Origin: a virus
Virus genome (UHGV): UHGV-1636268
DNA: 22,365 nt
Strand: one strand, 5' to 3'
The notes under the pieces were generated by a model. It searched no databases. It saw nothing but the letters and a program-made list of their open reading frames with translations, and was not told the origin of the DNA. Positions 1 through 22,365 of this stretch are shown here, one piece after another (positions within the stretch are counted from its first letter, which is position 1; every line of letters starts with the position of its first letter). A program made the position numbers and the translations under genes.

Positions 1-230
1 TACCCCCACCTACCCCCACCTACCTGCACAATTCTAAAATGATTTTTCTTGCCCGACCTGATTTTTCTCTGCACGTTTTGAAAATGAAAAAACCCTTTGG
101 AGATTACCTGCACAGTTTGAAAATGAATTTTCTCTTTGGAGTTCAAAATTTTCTCTATAGATTCCTCTACAGAACTCTACCTGCACAAATCTGAAATGAA
201 AAAGCCCTCCTTACCTGAAAAATTTACCAG
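1..230. repeat. Cluster of degenerate direct repeats at window edge: tandem 10-mer TACCCCCACC x2 (1-20); ~39-bp unit CTGCAC-N2-TTTGAAAATGAA-N6-CTTTGGAG in two tandem copies (69-107, 108-146); partial copies at 22-42 and 179-207
   Basis: Read directly: ACCTGCACA at 22-30, 106-114, 179-187; (T)TGAAAATGA at 34-42, 78-87, 117-126, 191-199; CTTTGGAG at 94-101 and 133-140. No minus-strand ATG in 1-272. Confidence 0.6.
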
Positions 231-272
231 ATAAGAAAGGCTTAGTCTATTGTGAATATACTACGAAGTTTC

Positions 273-1058
273 TTAGTTCTTTGCGTCTAAGAAGGTAAGT
301 TCTGGTGAAGAGAAGATTAACTCAATATCCTCATCAGTTCTTGCATAGATATAAGCATCTGCATCACTGCCAAATGTTACTGCAATTCTGTGATTGCTCT
401 TCGACAGGTGGGTAACTAGAGCGTTACTTAGAGACATCTTTTCAACCGGAGGGTTACTTTGATGTATCTTACCTTTTCTTCGTCTGAAGAGGGTAACTGC
501 GTTATCTGTGAACACAACTACACCTGCAAAGTATTCTGGTTCACAGTAGTTTTTCCAACCTGAGTGTAACTCATTATACATTTTTGCTTCATAGACATAC
601 AGATAAACATCTACACTCTTCATCACCTGATTAATGATAACTGTGACAGCTTGAGGGTCAAGTCCACCGATACCTGCACCAATCATAGGTAGACCAACTT
701 TCTTCAACTGGTTAACTTCACAGTATCTGTTAAGCTGTTTCAAGGATGACTCTAAAGCACTGTATCGGGCATCTTTACCAGTATGAAGTTGGGTGTAAAG
801 GTTAGCTATACGGCCTTGTTTTAAACGTGCTACAGAGAAATTACCTAGTAAATTTTCACAGGGTTTGTGACGAATGCCACCTGCAAACAGGTAAACTTCT
901 GTGTCAGTATCATACACTTTTGGATAACGCTTAGAAATAGTTGCTGCAATACCTGCACCCATGAAATTCATACAGTTGCAACCATGACCAATGATATCAA
1001 ATTTGCCTTTATCAAATGCGTCAAAGATATCACCTTTGATGATTTTTACAATACCCAT
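273..1058 (-). CDS. Macro-domain protein (ADP-ribose binding/processing family) with ~100-aa C-terminal extension of unknown function
   Basis: N-terminal GDIFDAFDKGKFDIIGHGCNCMNFMGAGIAATI fits the macro-domain pattern GDIT...DxIVNxxN...GxGVxxAI. Start trimmed to ATG at 1058..1056 (GGGAGAG SD 8 nt upstream), which overlaps the upstream stop as TAATG; the track's 1073 start is a TTG extension. Confidence 0.65.
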   Translation of the reverse strand: MGIVKIIKGDIFDAFDKGKFDIIGHGCNCMNFMGAGIAATISKRYPKVYDTDTEVYLFAGGIRHKPCENLLGNFSVARLKQGRIANLYTQLHTGKDARYSALESSLKQLNRYCEVNQLKKVGLPMIGAGIGGLDPQAVTVIINQVMKSVDVYLYVYEAKMYNELHSGWKNYCEPEYFAGVVVFTDNAVTLFRRRKGKIHQSNPPVEKMSLSNALVTHLSKSNHRIAVTFGSDADAYIYARTDEDIELIFSSPELTFLDAKN

Positions 1059-4429: not shown

Positions 4430-5539
4430 TTAGATTTCACGTTTACGTTGAGAGATGAGTTCCCCAGCAGTACCAACGATGACATGCAAAGCTTCAGTCT
4501 TACCATCCCATGCTTTCAGAACTTTACGTTGATTATCAACGATTGCTGCAACTTCATAACGGGATGAACGCATCTTCATATCGTTGTAATCAGTCGGAAC
4601 AGATACAACATCTCGTGGATGGACACGAACCTTCAGAATTGTATCCCCTGAGAAGCAACGAACATAATCCCAAGCACCAACATGAAGACCTTGAGAGCAA
4701 GTCACGTTACGGTTATTATCAACCATCCAACGTGGCATTTCTACAATGTTACCCAAATCATTAGGTACTCTGTAGGTGTGGGAGTCAACCAGCTTGCCTT
4801 CACGAGTAGATACTTTCTTCCAACCAATGATGTAGCCTTCTTCATCAATTTCAACATCAAGGTGAGATACAAATCCCCAAAGTTGTTCTACAGAGTCTTT
4901 AGATGGGTTTTCCATCAGTTTTTCGAAGAACATTACAAGACGTTCAAAACCTTTATCACCAGTCTTCATCATGTGAAGAATACGGTCAACCAGAGTAGAA
5001 CGCATCTCAACAGCACCATAGAATAGCTTGTCACCTTTGATTGTGATAGCACCCTGAGTGAAGTTTTCGATAGACTTACGAATGTTCATTAGTTCAAATG
5101 CTTTCTTGAACTCGCCTTTCACAACGTGAACTACAATTTCTTGATAGTTCGGATGAGTAGACTCAACAATTTCAGATTCTGAACCGTAAGTCATAATTAC
5201 AGAGTCACCAGTAATCATGTACTCAATCTTGCCATCTTTCTGCATAGCTTCGTGCAGTTTATTTACTGGAGCTTTCTGTACAGCCTCTTTAACAACCTTT
5301 TTAACTGGCTTGTCAGCTTTCTTTTTAACTGATTTAGCAACTTGCTTCAAAGTCTTCGTAGCTGGTTTAGAAGTCACCTTCTTATTCCCTTTTAAGGTTG
5401 CTTCATGACGCTCTACAGCACGACCGACTGAACGGGTTGAGGTGTTAAATTTCTGTGCAATAGCGGTTTTAGTCAGCTTGCCCTCTTTAACCAGTTTGTA
5501 AATTTCTGCGTCAATCTGTGCTTTAGTTTTAGTAGTCAT
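4430..5539 (-). CDS. rIIB: RIIB-like protein
   Basis: Immediately downstream of the rIIA-like gene; size (369 aa) and segments such as CSQGLHVGAW and HPRDVVSVPTDYNDMKMRSSRYEV resemble T4 RIIB as recalled from memory; not checked by alignment. Confidence 0.65.
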   Translation of the reverse strand: MTTKTKAQIDAEIYKLVKEGKLTKTAIAQKFNTSTRSVGRAVERHEATLKGNKKVTSKPATKTLKQVAKSVKKKADKPVKKVVKEAVQKAPVNKLHEAMQKDGKIEYMITGDSVIMTYGSESEIVESTHPNYQEIVVHVVKGEFKKAFELMNIRKSIENFTQGAITIKGDKLFYGAVEMRSTLVDRILHMMKTGDKGFERLVMFFEKLMENPSKDSVEQLWGFVSHLDVEIDEEGYIIGWKKVSTREGKLVDSHTYRVPNDLGNIVEMPRWMVDNNRNVTCSQGLHVGAWDYVRCFSGDTILKVRVHPRDVVSVPTDYNDMKMRSSRYEVAAIVDNQRKVLKAWDGKTEALHVIVGTAGELISQRKREI

Positions 5540-5618: not shown

Positions 5619-7985
5619 TTAATCATAAATTGTAGTCCCTTCTGGAACACATTTTACATCAAAGCCTAAGAACTTACTCACTTCGATGGGTGACACTTTA
5701 TTCCAATCTAAATGAGAAAGCAAGAAGTTTTCTTGTTTTCTTTTTGAAAGGTAGTTTGTCACCTTAATGACCATACGGTCACCAGCTTTCTTAATTTTCT
5801 TGTAAAGCTTTGTATCATTGTCAAGACAGTCTTTCAAAGTTTTCAATACACTAATAGTATAAGTGTATGCAAATGGTGCAGCAACGTATTGGATTTTACC
5901 GAACATTGCCTCTACAGCATCTTCATTTCCTTCTAGGAAGATAGTTTTGTTTGTATCCCGTGAATAGCAATAGCCACGAGAAATCTTCCTGTTATTGAAT
6001 GTAAAGTTTCTGGCAATAATCCAGCTACTTGTAAGGTCAAGAACACCATTCATGTAGATGCGTGTCATATACCTGTTATGATTAATCCAATGAACATCAG
6101 TTAAGCTGTCGTTCAAGAGCTTCTCATCTACTTCAATCCAGTCTTCTGGTATCTTTTTCCAATTTGCTTTTCGGAAAACATAGACTGTCTTTCCAATAAC
6201 ATTAGCAACTGACTTAGCTACATCTTCTGGTGATGAGCAAAAACATTCACCATCAACTGTGTCACCAATTGCCTTAATGTAAAGCTGAGGTTCTTCAATT
6301 GTGTCTAAGTCCTCTGACACCTCTTTGTAGGAGGCTACACCTTCTGCTGGAACAGCTTTCCAGAGTTTTACAACACCTCTTACAGCTTCTTTACGCTGGT
6401 AATGGTGTTCCTTATCAGACATTTTCACAATCTTTAACAAGCTTTTATCAAGTTTGTGTAGATTGATTAAATCATCTAACTCTTTTTCAGTCGAGAATAC
6501 AAACACAATCCCATTGTATCTGTGAAACAGACTTGACTCACTGGCGTAGTCTCGACATGCACCACGCAAGATTTGATTGCGACCTACAGTCTTCTCAGTA
6601 CCATTTTTATTGCGACGGTCATTAATCACGAACAAAAACTGTTCAATTTGGCTTTTACGCATTGCGCCAAAGATATTGAACATACTTGCCTCTTGAGTGT
6701 AGGAAAGTGCTGTTGCACGAATCTTACTCTCTAAAGAGTTGAACTTGACATAAGCAACTGGATTATAAAGATAATCTACTTTAGGGATATTGTTCCCGTT
6801 CCTATCAACCTTAATATTACCTTTGCCGTCACGTTCATAAATGACTGAGCCGTCTTCTGCGTAGATAATTCCACGACGAATGTTTAGCAATTCTTCTTCC
6901 AGAGAATCAAGCTTAACGCCACCCCACTCTAGCTTTGGACACACAGCATTAAACATCTCTCGTGAGTTCAAACGTAACTCAGCATAAGCCTGTGCAGCAT
7001 CCATGAGTGTAGGTTGGCTATTAACTTTCTTGATAACATCCTTTGTAATGGCTTCAGTTATCTTTTTAGTAGCCTCAATGATAACATTTTTTGTCGTGTC
7101 ATTCATCTGCAATGCTTCACGAGAAGCTGCAATAGCAACTGAACCAATAGGCATGTAGATGTTTACAAGGTCTACGCTCCTACGGAAAAATTCTGGCAAT
7201 ACTTTGAAGAAATCATCACCAAGTAACGCTTCCATGTTAACAGGGTAGGCAATGTTACCCATCACCACATTAAACTCTGTCCTGTTACCACTAGAACGCC
7301 AGCTTTGCTTATGAATCATGGCATCATAAACACCCTCTTCACGGGCAATGACGTTCATATCTGCTAATACATCGTCGTACACAATATTACTTTCTGGTTT
7401 TACAGCAAAGTATGAGTATACATTACCAGCTTCTTCAAAGAACTTTGAGATACGGTGGTCAGCAACTGCCACACGTACAGCTAAACCATTAGGTTCATTT
7501 GTTTGGTTAGTAGTAAGCTTAGTTACTTGAGGGATACCATTCTCAAGGTAAACAGAGTACTTATTAACAACACCATCAACATAGCTAGATACTGTGAATG
7601 ACTGAGCAATTGCAAACGGTGACTTTGAGCCGATGCCCATTGCACCAATGTAGTCATTAGAGTCATTCTTCGTAGAAGCCCCGTAGTTCAGATACAAACT
7701 CATTACTTTGTCATGGGTTAAACCAGTTCCAAAGTCACGGACTTCAAAGTAAGGCTCAAATCGAGTAGGCAAATGCACATGGAACGGGATGTTTTCTTTT
7801 CCAGCTTCTTTCTGAGCATCTACTGCGTTACATGACAGTTCACGAATCACTGCCCTTTCTTTAAACGTGTATACACCAGAACTCAAAAGGCTGAACATTT
7901 CAGGTGTCATTGTAATCTGTGCTTGAGACGTCTCTAAAGAAGTTGAACTCTTAATCACTTCTGCGTGGTCGTTTACCATGCGCAT
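5619..7985 (-). CDS. rIIA: RIIA-like protein with N-terminal GHKL (histidine-kinase-like) ATPase domain
   Basis: GHKL motifs near the N-terminus: N-box ELSCNAVDA, G1 box VRDFGTGL, G2 box GAMGIGSKS. Size (788 aa) and position next to rIIB match T4 rIIA. Confidence 0.8.
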   Translation of the reverse strand: MRMVNDHAEVIKSSTSLETSQAQITMTPEMFSLLSSGVYTFKERAVIRELSCNAVDAQKEAGKENIPFHVHLPTRFEPYFEVRDFGTGLTHDKVMSLYLNYGASTKNDSNDYIGAMGIGSKSPFAIAQSFTVSSYVDGVVNKYSVYLENGIPQVTKLTTNQTNEPNGLAVRVAVADHRISKFFEEAGNVYSYFAVKPESNIVYDDVLADMNVIAREEGVYDAMIHKQSWRSSGNRTEFNVVMGNIAYPVNMEALLGDDFFKVLPEFFRRSVDLVNIYMPIGSVAIAASREALQMNDTTKNVIIEATKKITEAITKDVIKKVNSQPTLMDAAQAYAELRLNSREMFNAVCPKLEWGGVKLDSLEEELLNIRRGIIYAEDGSVIYERDGKGNIKVDRNGNNIPKVDYLYNPVAYVKFNSLESKIRATALSYTQEASMFNIFGAMRKSQIEQFLFVINDRRNKNGTEKTVGRNQILRGACRDYASESSLFHRYNGIVFVFSTEKELDDLINLHKLDKSLLKIVKMSDKEHHYQRKEAVRGVVKLWKAVPAEGVASYKEVSEDLDTIEEPQLYIKAIGDTVDGECFCSSPEDVAKSVANVIGKTVYVFRKANWKKIPEDWIEVDEKLLNDSLTDVHWINHNRYMTRIYMNGVLDLTSSWIIARNFTFNNRKISRGYCYSRDTNKTIFLEGNEDAVEAMFGKIQYVAAPFAYTYTISVLKTLKDCLDNDTKLYKKIKKAGDRMVIKVTNYLSKRKQENFLLSHLDWNKVSPIEVSKFLGFDVKCVPEGTTIYD

Positions 7986-8013
7986 AATACTTTCCTCTCA
8001 GTTTACTGTTAAA

Positions 8014-11282: not shown

Positions 11283-11561
11283 TCAATCAAAGGTTACGTT
11301 TGTTACTGCCATTGCAGATTTGCATTTTACAGGGTCTACAACGTGGTAAAGTACACTACAGTTACCTGTGCTGTCTGGTACAGGTTTTACCCATTGATGC
11401 TTTATAGTTGGCTCTCCTAAGTCTTTGTAAGAACCATCTGTAAAGTTGTTTACCATCTCAAGTGCAATTGGTTCTGGAACATGACCACGTATCATGTACA
11501 TTTCACAACCATTACCACCTTCACTGACTAATGGTAAAATTTCCCACTTCTCTTTAGCCAT
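11283..11561 (-). CDS. Hypothetical protein (92 aa)
   Basis: ATG start; sits directly upstream of the Prs-like gene; no recognisable motif. Confidence 0.45.
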   Translation of the reverse strand: MAKEKWEILPLVSEGGNGCEMYMIRGHVPEPIALEMVNNFTDGSYKDLGEPTIKHQWVKPVPDSTGNCSVLYHVVDPVKCKSAMAVTNVTFD

Positions 11562-12069
11562 TGTAAGTTGCCCTATAAACTGTCTCGAATTTCAACAGGA
11601 GAGATATTGCCAAATCTGTATAGTTATTGTCAAGCACATCTGGCATATTATTTTTGATATATTTCTCTTGCTCTTCGTAGGTCATCTTAGGGATGCTTAG
11701 AAGACTATCACCTTGATTCTGATTATCAAGTTTAGTCTGGATAAACCAGTTTGCACAGTGATGCTCACCACCCTTTGTAACAGGTTTGTGGTGGCCTAAT
11801 GTGAAGGATTGACTACCTGTGTATCTGCAAAGTTTATTGAGCACTGTAATGGTGTTCTTCACAACAAAACATTCATATAGGTTATCTATAGTGTAGTGTG
11901 GGTAATAACGGAATAGTGCTCTTTCACGAGTACTTTCACGATTCCAGAGAATCATGTGATTGGAGTTTGAGGAGTCGTATTGGTGGTAGTCAATGAACTC
12001 TTGACGTTCCTCAAAGCTGAGTCTTAACACTGACATTGCAGCAGAACGTTTCAGATTTGACAGATACAT
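11554..12069 (-). CDS. Hypothetical protein (171 aa) with His/Cys-rich segment GHHKPVTKGGEHHC
   Basis: ATG start with GGAG SD 6 nt upstream, directly after the terminator at 12084-12107; possible metal-binding motif; family not recognised. Confidence 0.5.
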   Translation of the reverse strand: MYLSNLKRSAAMSVLRLSFEERQEFIDYHQYDSSNSNHMILWNRESTRERALFRYYPHYTIDNLYECFVVKNTITVLNKLCRYTGSQSFTLGHHKPVTKGGEHHCANWFIQTKLDNQNQGDSLLSIPKMTYEEQEKYIKNNMPDVLDNNYTDLAISLLLKFETVYRATYNG

Positions 12070-22329: not shown

Positions 22330-22363
22330 CTGTCTCTTATACACATCTCCGAGCCCACGAGAC
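22330..22363 (+). other. Illumina Nextera (Tn5 mosaic-end) adapter at the window terminus; non-biological
   Basis: Exact match to CTGTCTCTTATACACATCTCCGAGCCCACGAGAC at 22330-22363, running to the end of the window. Confidence 0.9.
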
Positions 22364-22365
22364 TA

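Follow-up and report, generated by a model that had tools for sequence, protein, structure and literature searches.

The first 230 bp of the window, as we call the whole stretch of 22,365 nucleotides analyzed here (virus genome UHGV-1636268), carry an array of four head-to-tail copies of an asymmetric, bipartite motif. This array is very probably a selected, non-coding set of putative binding sites for one sequence-specific DNA-binding protein, a reading based on the asymmetry of the core, the head-to-tail orientation, the single locus and the tolerance of three to five copies. Since the core hardly varies across genera, the binding partner would be either a phage protein of very high conservation or a host protein common to Enterobacterales. 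With regard to a more specific role, an iteron-type replication origin or replisome-loading site is our leading, still tentative, candidate, and transcriptional control or insulation comes close behind. The initial annotation of these repeats had listed replication origins and sites for regulatory proteins among the typical functions of such arrays; what stands is a conserved, iteron-like, non-coding cluster that is most plausibly protein-binding, with origin and regulation both as live options. The remaining probability falls to a neutral relic, a genome terminus or packaging (pac) site, a coding or RNA function, an artefact and functions that we have not thought of.

Judged by its matches, this contig belongs to a Felixounavirus, a Felix O1-like myovirus. 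Its first 3 kb resemble more than 200 phage records at approximately 95% identity, and all of them are Felix O1-like myoviruses (Ounavirinae, mostly Felixounavirus). The nearest relative is Felixounavirus LF110P4 (OZ035790.1), which is 96.7% identical over 3 kb and 99.6% identical over bases 1–272. All sizeable ORFs of the window lie on the minus strand, and their products include rIIA, rIIB, a macro-domain ‘phosphatase’, NrdA/B/D/G-type reductases and a nicotinamide phosphoribosyltransferase, among others. The right end (22330–22365) is an untrimmed Illumina Nextera adapter, and the window is therefore very probably a complete short-read contig.

When compared with complete relatives, positions 1–272 correspond to the upstream half of an internal intergenic region of about 500–520 bp, which separates the macro-domain gene (Felix O1 ORF13) from the small gene that follows. 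The initial placement of the repeats downstream of the last gene was therefore an effect of the window edge, since the coding strand runs on with 5–15 small genes in more than 200 complete relatives. Along the coding strand, the macro stop codon is followed by the terminator t13, copy A, a decayed unit, copies B to D and, at the window edge, the 10-mer repeat. Past the edge, the relatives have some 180–200 bp including A/T-rich DNA, and then a sigma-70 promoter, a strong ribosome-binding site and the small genes. This promoter is consensus-like (TTGACT-N17-TAATAT, with an A/T-rich upstream element) and drives a cassette of small early genes, hypervariable in content, that extends toward the right end of the genome. 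Its distance to the last array copy, 174–205 bp and outside the window, is conserved across genera, and the succession of terminator, array, 174–205 bp and strong promoter firing away is common to all genera compared. The features located in the window are the following:

1–24, minus strand: tandem repeat of a G-rich 10-mer, (GGTGGGGGTA)n on the coding strand, truncated at the window edge; TRF counts 2.4 copies, with a 100% match
25–42, minus strand: repeat copy D, core TCATTTTAGAATTGTGCA (coding strand); site conserved in all Felixounavirus and Moogle-like loci
70–87, minus strand: repeat copy C, core TCATTTTCAAAACGTGCA; from repeat and core-motif scans and comparison with relatives
109–126, minus strand: repeat copy B, core TCATTTTCAAACTGTGCA; missing in the three-copy variants L020 and L043
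142–178, minus strand: decayed fifth unit between copies A and B, core lost (repeat family D7)
182–199, minus strand: repeat copy A, core TCATTTCAGATTTGTGCA; first half-site is the terminator T-tract
192–243, minus strand: rho-independent terminator of the macro-domain gene, homologue of t13; 17-bp stem and loop at 202–243, T-tract at 192–201
273–1058, minus strand: macro-domain ‘phosphatase’ gene, homologue of Felix O1 ORF13 (Pfam Macro, E = 5e-7; phrog_335, E = 2e-114)

On the coding strand, the motif reads TCATTTY-N6-GTGCA, i.e., a 7-bp and a 5-bp block approximately one helical turn apart, and each copy usually has a T-run before it and GGTA after it. A search for the composite core CTGCACNNWTYTRAAATGA with up to two mismatches returned four matches, all within 24–199, against 0.09 expected, and none of 100 shuffled sequences reached four, in line with the at least four composite copies described initially. 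Start-to-start spacings of the copies in the window are 73, 39 and 45 bp. Among the constituent elements, ACCTGCACA occurs at 22, 106 and 179 and at no other site in the 22-kb window, CTGCAC is additionally present at 69, TTGAAAATGA is found at 78 and 117 (with variants at 33–42 and 190–199) and CTTTGGAG at 95 and 134. The 10-mer TACCCCCACC, situated at 1 and 11 and followed by TACC at 21–24, was recovered by TRF as the tandem pair that had been annotated, in an array cut by the window edge; likewise, CAT is absent from 1–230, in agreement with the reported lack of a minus-strand ATG. As for the proposed 39-bp tandem duplication, the 39-bp spacing is present, but the units are imperfect (69–102 and 108–141 are 79% identical). 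The decayed unit retains a spacer-like sequence, AATTTTCTCTATAGA, which resembles AATTTTCTCTTTGGA.

Copy A, the rightmost in the window, overlaps the terminator, whose T-tract doubles as the first half-site of that copy. The terminator scan returned a 17-pair stem followed by TTTCATTTCA, 29 nt past the stop codon, which is the arrangement of a rho-independent terminator, and a terminator is annotated here in the Barry, AYO145A and ASO1B records. It is the homologue of Felix O1 t13, with the near-identical sequence gcctttcttatctggtaaatttttcaggtaaggagggctttttcattt; in the accessible part of the Felix O1 paper, Table 2 lists t13 at 7947–7994 with a ΔG of −21.8 as the most stable terminator there, and that part gives the hairpin only, its direct repeats of at least 24 bp being others than the array (Whichard et al. 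2010, PMC3185647). The unit boundary (CAGGTA...) indicates that the array is made of tandem units of about 37–45 bp starting inside the descending arm of the hairpin. Such an arrangement could have arisen as a tandem duplication of the terminator tail (CAGGTA...TTTTTCATTT...GTG) that persists as a neutral relic without function; the first half of unit A is indeed the descending arm plus T-tract of t13, one unit has decayed in Felixounavirus, and one has been lost in L020 and L043. The conservation data described below make this origin by inert duplication improbable.

The comparison with related phages that had been suggested as a check revealed a conserved array: approximately 290 independently sequenced phage records and 30 IMG/VR contigs share its four units without a change in order or spacing. 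The latter were retrieved by scanning 2.9 million viral contigs with two adjacent motif copies as query, which yielded 31 loci, 30 of them on contigs of Ounavirinae size (51–94 kb) and the other an unrelated tandem repeat, a distribution confined to this lineage; those inspected in detail (e.g., L020, L021, L030, L034, L043 and L045) showed the same macro-gene/array/promoter context. A search of 72,556 plasmids and of 5,426 E. coli genomes yielded no similar sequence. A further suggested check, whether the motif recurs elsewhere in the genome, indicated confinement to one locus, both in the 22-kb window and in the complete 86-kb genome of LF110P4, where the same four sites are the only good matches. 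The composite repeats might also be a collapsed or chimeric product of assembly that independent assemblies would lack. The window does have a repeat at its left end and an untrimmed adapter at its right end, but the recurrence of the same units, order and spacing in so many independent records and contigs leaves practically no room for an artefact.

The macro-domain gene is the conserved upstream neighbor of the array, and this synteny is kept in Felixounavirus, Moogle-like phages, Kolesnikvirus and the divergent 88-kb contig L030. Spacings are 73/39/45 bp in Felixounavirus, 75/41/45 in Moogle-like phages and 37/37/39 in the Erwinia Kolesnikvirus phages. The Erwinia phages hold a full copy where the window has the decayed unit, and their spacing implies that the 73-bp interval of Felixounavirus conceals a lost copy. 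From this comparison, the ancestral array is reconstructed as five copies about 37–39 bp apart; contig L030 carries five copies in the same synteny. Overall, copy number ranges from three to five among genomes, with three in some (L020, L043), and unit types are shuffled between positions (L045, L020), being permuted in one genome.

Variability is concentrated outside the cores. Among 30 non-redundant sequences, it was 0.020 for the 48 core columns vs. 0.130 for the spacers (permutation p < 1e-4), and among nine sequences chosen by BLAST, a set that avoids the bias of pattern-based selection, the cores reached 0.030, the spacers 0.153 and the remainder of the gap 0.35 (permutation p < 1e-4; as the sequences are related, p is not an exact probability). 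The 12 core bases are near-invariant across at least three genera, and the motif is little altered throughout the Felix O1 subfamily. These alignments point to purifying selection on the cores, which are 5–7 times less variable than the spacers. Furthermore, the Erwinia phages align with the intergenic region across the array only, while the flanking proteins of the window phage are just 30–44% identical to those of phiEa104 or L030. Neutral sequence would not be alignable at such a distance, and the retention of the cores thus argues against a neutral relic.

A direct-repeat cluster at a contig edge, together with several records or contigs that start or end in the same intergenic region, could also be taken for a genome terminus, a terminal repeat or a pac recognition site, as had been proposed. 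In Felix O1-like phages, however, the terminal repeats are direct and short. In UAB_Phi87, a direct terminal repeat of 608 bp was measured by Bal31 digestion and run-off sequencing (PMC4837284), and in Pr103Blw one of 581 bp was determined by PhageTerm (PMC8303462). The Pr103Blw record has terminal repeats annotated at both ends, the right one at 87841–88421; the macro gene occupies 80693–81478 and the array-bearing gap 81479–81999, which is followed by thirteen small genes before the right repeat. This places the array 6.4–6.9 kb short of the right end, a distance equal to 7.6% of the genome. In LF110P4, with fewer small genes, the array lies about 2.4 kb from the region equivalent to the terminal repeat. 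The Pr103Blw terminal repeat therefore maps to another non-coding region, 2.4–6.9 kb downstream of the array, and more than 200 complete genomes carry the array itself only once, at an internal position. Because of this distance, the terminus and pac readings fail, and we regard them as very improbable. A terminal duplication includes the array in just one record, that of the Erwinia phage BoyaciRG1, with identical 1,232-bp ends; these begin and finish inside genes, and the genome has a normal size once one copy is removed, so that the duplication looks like an untrimmed assembly overlap.

The position of the window edge can be accounted for by the 10-mer repeat. Its copy number varies among relatives (3.7 in LF110P4, 1.7 in L023, one in L040 and two degenerate copies in Barry and AYO145A), and Felix O1, wV8 and the Moogle-like phages have a C-rich tract (CCCCTCTCCCCCTCTTACTCCCCC...) in its place. 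In support of the initial suggestion of a repeat-related contig boundary, the left edge of the window falls inside this variable-number 10-mer, and some other contigs or records also stop at this tract or close to it. Contig L026 breaks off in ...CTCTTACTCC with a Nextera adapter attached, and L019 stops at that very base. The Andreotti record begins just before the G/C tract, with a small hairpin-like artefact, and TH10 ends slightly beyond it, while L032 has a junction inside the array to an unrelated G+C-rich, bacterial-looking sequence. The G/C-rich tract, or strain-level variation there, may break short-read assemblies, which explains the edge position without a genome end. The clustering of these cases is anecdotal, as they are few (the window, L026, L019, Andreotti, TH10 and L032) and the locus ends are not always contig ends; assembly breaks as a biological signal were set aside on account of this handful of cases. 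The uncertainty in this contig is limited to the copy number of the 10-mer, and the composite repeats are real.

Taking four runs of at least three G on one strand, 1–7 nt apart, as the canonical G-quadruplex motif, the 10-mer repeat of LF110P4 is the sole instance in 86 kb; the motif is complete in that genome, and the window shows two G5 runs before its edge. The C-rich allele gives a quadruplex motif on the opposite strand, and the alleles of Barry, AYO145A, phiEa104 and L030 give none, so a quadruplex is not a conserved property of the locus. A Chi-like reading of the G-rich tract was also considered, as GCAGGTGG resembles GCTGGTGG, but this sequence is not conserved among alleles and the reading was dropped.

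A small protein-coding gene or a structured or regulatory RNA spanning the repeats had to be weighed as well, given that the original Felix O1 record has ORF31–34 in this region and that hypothetical proteins are annotated here in some records. In addition, the Felix O1 paper reports an RT-PCR signal for ORF14, inferred to lie in this region, that peaked at 25 min (PMC3185647). Against such a function, no reading frame is kept between genera in the array region, stops occur in all frames, and the indels are of 1–2 bp, not multiples of three. The predicted RNA fold of the region was no better than that of shuffled sequence (z-score 0.19), Rfam returned one sub-threshold chance match only, and a strong terminator stands directly upstream. 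No sigma-70 promoter was found within the array on either strand, the best candidate by eye being TTGAAA with a poor −10 hexamer. Taken together, a coding or RNA role is about as improbable as a terminus.

The features that make an iteron-type origin the most likely specific role, albeit a tentative one, are the asymmetric direct repeats in one orientation, the single locus, the tolerance of three to five copies and the shuffling of units. At least three direct repeats of 17–22 bp in the same orientation at one locus would be expected of iterons, and the array offers four plus one decayed copy, with an atypical spacing of 37–45 bp. In mechanistic terms, each repeat would be occupied by one monomer or head-to-tail unit of the protein, touching two successive major grooves, and the bound units together would form a nucleoprotein complex at the boundary between t13 and the early cassette. 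The terminator would shield this complex from transcription arriving from the 30-kb transcription unit upstream, and negative supercoiling behind the strong, outward-firing promoter may aid opening of the intervening A/T-rich DNA.

Iteron origins for comparison are lambda ori with its O protein, the Rep iterons of plasmids and T4 oriE. Like these, the array consists of several asymmetric direct repeats of ~18–21 bp in one orientation at a single locus per genome; it is non-coding, with cores more constrained than spacers and a variable copy number, and has A/T-rich DNA and a promoter nearby. Unlike them, this candidate origin has units 37–45 bp apart, about twice the ~20–23 bp of classical iterons, has no DnaA or IHF sites and is not the least stable DNA of the genome. 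Also against an origin, T7-type origins rely on promoters, not iterons. The Felix O1 paper describes a T7-like replisome with a gp4-type primase-helicase (PMC3185647). In addition, the conserved distance to the promoter is equally compatible with a transcriptional role.

Several searches bear on these points. DnaA boxes occurred at chance level (20 matches vs. 19.98 expected, none perfect), no IHF consensus was present, and comparison with the consensus sequences of CRP, Fur, OmpR, MarA and Fis gave nothing convincing. GC skew showed no inflection at the array and merely followed the direction of transcription, which makes it uninformative with regard to an origin. With respect to duplex stability, A/T-rich DNA lies 100–200 bp from the array, and its best 60-bp window is in the least stable 0.4% of the genome; in windows of 100–200 bp, the array region was only in the top 4–5% least stable, and the genome minima were the divergent polymerase/primase intergenic region and the terminal-repeat region. 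For the genes next to the array, Pfam and PHROG scans returned macro, rIIA, rIIB and proteins without an assigned function. No initiator (Rep/O-like) gene is known or was found near the array, nor is one among the annotations of positions 1–45,000 of the Meda record, about half of that genome and rich in proteins without an assigned function.

A transcriptional role is a somewhat less probable alternative to an origin. Here, a phage or host protein on the array, perhaps by spreading or looping, would switch the early promoter off or on, or the occupied array would act as a roadblock that reinforces t13; with either form, the terminal early cassette would be expressed from its own promoter only. 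In every genus, the array has t13 on one side and, at a conserved distance, the cassette promoter on the other, and the 10-mer repeat alters this distance in steps of one helical turn. In Table 3 of the Felix O1 paper, several cassette genes have their maximum at 5 min (PMC3185647), which calls for a shut-off mechanism, and the phage encodes a conserved Xre-type HTH protein, the sole regulator annotated in Meda 1–45,000. On the other hand, the sites are ~175–400 bp upstream of the −35 hexamer, far from the usual reach of sigma-70 regulators; the asymmetric sites in head-to-tail order do not suit Cro/Xre-type proteins, which normally bind dyads; and a regulator should have more targets, yet the motif is nowhere else in the genome.

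The location of the array near one genome end also invites comparison with the injection stop signal (iss) of T5 (Davison, bioRxiv 10.1101/866236). Both are conserved non-coding repeats in phages with direct terminal repeats, better kept than the adjoining small early ORFs and situated some 8% of the genome away from one end, and both owe their proposed function to position and conservation. The T5 region spans 1.2 kb, mostly inside a 10-kb terminal repeat, and contains inverted repeats, palindromes and paired DnaA boxes, in contrast to the ~200 bp of simple direct repeats found here, which lie outside a 0.6-kb terminal repeat and have no DnaA boxes. Thus, the conserved non-coding repeats bordering variable early genes near one end are shared with T5, and the paired DnaA or DnaA-like boxes and large inverted repeats are not; the inverted repeats at this locus are two, weak and distant.

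By analogy, the array could be a DNA-entry pause or anchoring site, which would halt or tether the genome once the terminal early cassette has entered and so delimit a ‘first-step’ segment. Its distance from the right end of Pr103Blw (6.4–6.9 kb, 7.6%), with only small hypervariable early genes between array and terminal repeat, resembles that of the T5 signal, likewise conserved non-coding repeats beside variable pre-early genes, at 7.9% from the end (bioRxiv 10.1101/866236). Nevertheless, the distance between array and end varies from 2.4 to 6.9 kb, the paired DnaA boxes of T5 type are absent, and the mechanism is unproven in T5 itself, and we consider entry pausing unlikely. To our knowledge, no Felix O1-like phage has been reported to inject its DNA in two steps. 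A related and similarly unlikely proposal is that the array and the quadruplex-prone G/C tract form a new boundary element in phages with direct terminal repeats, where a host protein conserved in Enterobacterales would hold or pause the entering or replicating genome at ~92% of its length. If this were true, a swappable ‘first-expressed’ host-takeover cassette would be functionally set apart from the rest of the chromosome, a T5-like staged entry or compartmentalization in a myovirus family without a known case.

A resemblance to F-plasmid sopC was also considered, as both have tandem units of ~40 bp with one short putative protein-binding core each. In sopC, a ParB-type dimer binds a core that is an inverted repeat, and a partition operon is needed, whereas the core of the array is asymmetric. 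No partition genes were found among the annotations of Meda positions 1–45,000 (half of the genome), and a lytic phage has no obvious need for partition.

With regard to previous work, the t13 terminator, the terminal repeats and the repeated promoter/terminator modules of the downstream cassette are already published. Of the array itself, an iteron-like set of putative binding sites with nothing unprecedented in its sequence, we found no description in the accessible literature, including the Felix O1, UAB_Phi87 and Pr103Blw papers, and the accessible portions of the Bas63 PhageMaP paper do not address its intergenic region. Felix O1-like phages are among the most used in Salmonella and E. 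coli typing, biocontrol and therapy, with hundreds of genomes available; nonetheless, we found no report of a replication origin for them in the literature, and the Felix O1 genome paper states that temporal control of transcription is not known (PMC3185647). As one of the best-conserved non-coding sequences that we encountered in this group, the array, with 12 core bases in each of four copies, offers a small and concrete target for finding the origin or an important regulator. As the border of the variable early-gene cassette, it is also relevant to the engineering of Felix O1-like phages, and the G/C-rich repeat beside it warns against taking such contig edges for genome ends.

Lastly, repeated non-coding sequence in an early hypervariable gene region is a trait that the array shares with PeSLs, the mobile promoter/stem-loop cassettes between early genes of T4-type phages, and with the modules of Felix O1 genes 15–23. 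Those elements occupy many gaps and carry promoters or hairpins; the array motif, by contrast, has neither and is confined to one locus, i.e., it is not a dispersed cassette of this kind. Separately, we observed that the small genes downstream of the array carry repeated promoter/terminator/RBS modules.

The window ends, on its right side, in bases that do not belong to the phage.

Window 22330-22365: CTGTCTCTTATACACATCTCCGAGCCCACGAGAC plus TA, an Illumina Nextera adapter that was not trimmed off.

CTGTCTCTTATACACATCTCCGAGCCCACGAGAC is the sequence of this adapter; the last ~36 bases are non-phage sequence and, given that the adapter was left untrimmed, the window is very probably a raw contig assembled from short reads. 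Assembly breaks were observed in related records, at the array of TCATTTY-N6-GTGCA copies and at the G/C-rich tract that directly follows it on the coding strand.

L032 (IMG/VR contig 3300045988_004180), about 4430-4621: switch to foreign sequence inside the array, after CAGGTCGGG.

Beyond CAGGTCGGG, the L032 sequence was unrelated to the phage, G+C-rich and bacterial-looking, and this contig is probably a chimeric metagenome assembly. Two further contigs from IMG/VR metagenome 3300045988 (L026 and L019) both ended at an identical position within the C-rich tract, with a Nextera adapter after the break point in one of them. The Andreotti record (L009) began just before the C-rich tract, with a short hairpin-like artefact. 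These break points possibly reflect a systematic short-read dropout or a break caused by strain variation. With regard to the Erwinia phage BoyaciRG1, its record has identical ends.

BoyaciRG1 (OR125561.1), L047 1-1232 and L048 1769-3000: identical 1,232-bp ends.

These duplicated ends start within the macro-domain gene and finish within a downstream gene, and are probably a circular-assembly overlap left untrimmed rather than a true terminal repeat.

Short repeats other than the array motif were dense in the non-coding region in which the direct terminal repeat starts.

L003 (closest relative, LF110P4, record ~68.7-69.5 kb) 1-760 and L014 1698-2278: non-coding region where the direct terminal repeat begins.

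This region harbored four TTCTTAACA-like units, together with TTGTTAGCA-like units and numerous CTATAAAG or CTATAGAG motifs. TTAACA-type repeats directly followed the array in the divergent contig L030, and a CTRTAGAGAAA pair was located within the array itself (window 150-173). One DnaA-like box of the injection stop signal region of phage T5 reads TTATTAACA (bioRxiv 10.1101/866236).

Downstream of the array lies a cassette of small genes.

L003 750-2760 (LF110P4), coding strand, and likewise in L001, L002 and L049: small genes downstream of the array.

Each small gene had a nearly identical leader with a ribosome-binding site, CCTTAAACTAGGAGATTCAAAAATG, in front of it and a short G+C hairpin behind it. 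Between these modules, the gene content varied widely from phage to phage, with as few as 5 and as many as about 13-15 genes. This layout is reminiscent of the mobile regulatory cassettes found in T4-type phages. Repeats of 57 bp and 39 bp in the downstream small-gene region are mentioned for Felix O1 in PMC3185647.

Another candidate for the replication origin, and also for early promoters, is a divergent intergenic gap; it contains the DNA with the lowest duplex stability, and the highest A/T content, in the genome.

LF110P4 about 34.7-34.9 kb (L004) and the relative Meda 25436-25694: divergent gap with the DNA polymerase gene on one side and the primase/helicase-side genes on the other.

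Finally, a putative endonuclease gene was found among the nucleotide-metabolism genes.

Window 11554-12069, minus strand: 171-aa ORF, weak HNH-endonuclease match (phrog_2214, E=2.7e-4).

The ORF is located between the genes for PRPP synthetase and anaerobic reductase, and may encode a homing endonuclease or what is left of one. In Meda and other relatives, this nucleotide-metabolism module contains several HNH genes, as well as intron-split reductase and polymerase genes.
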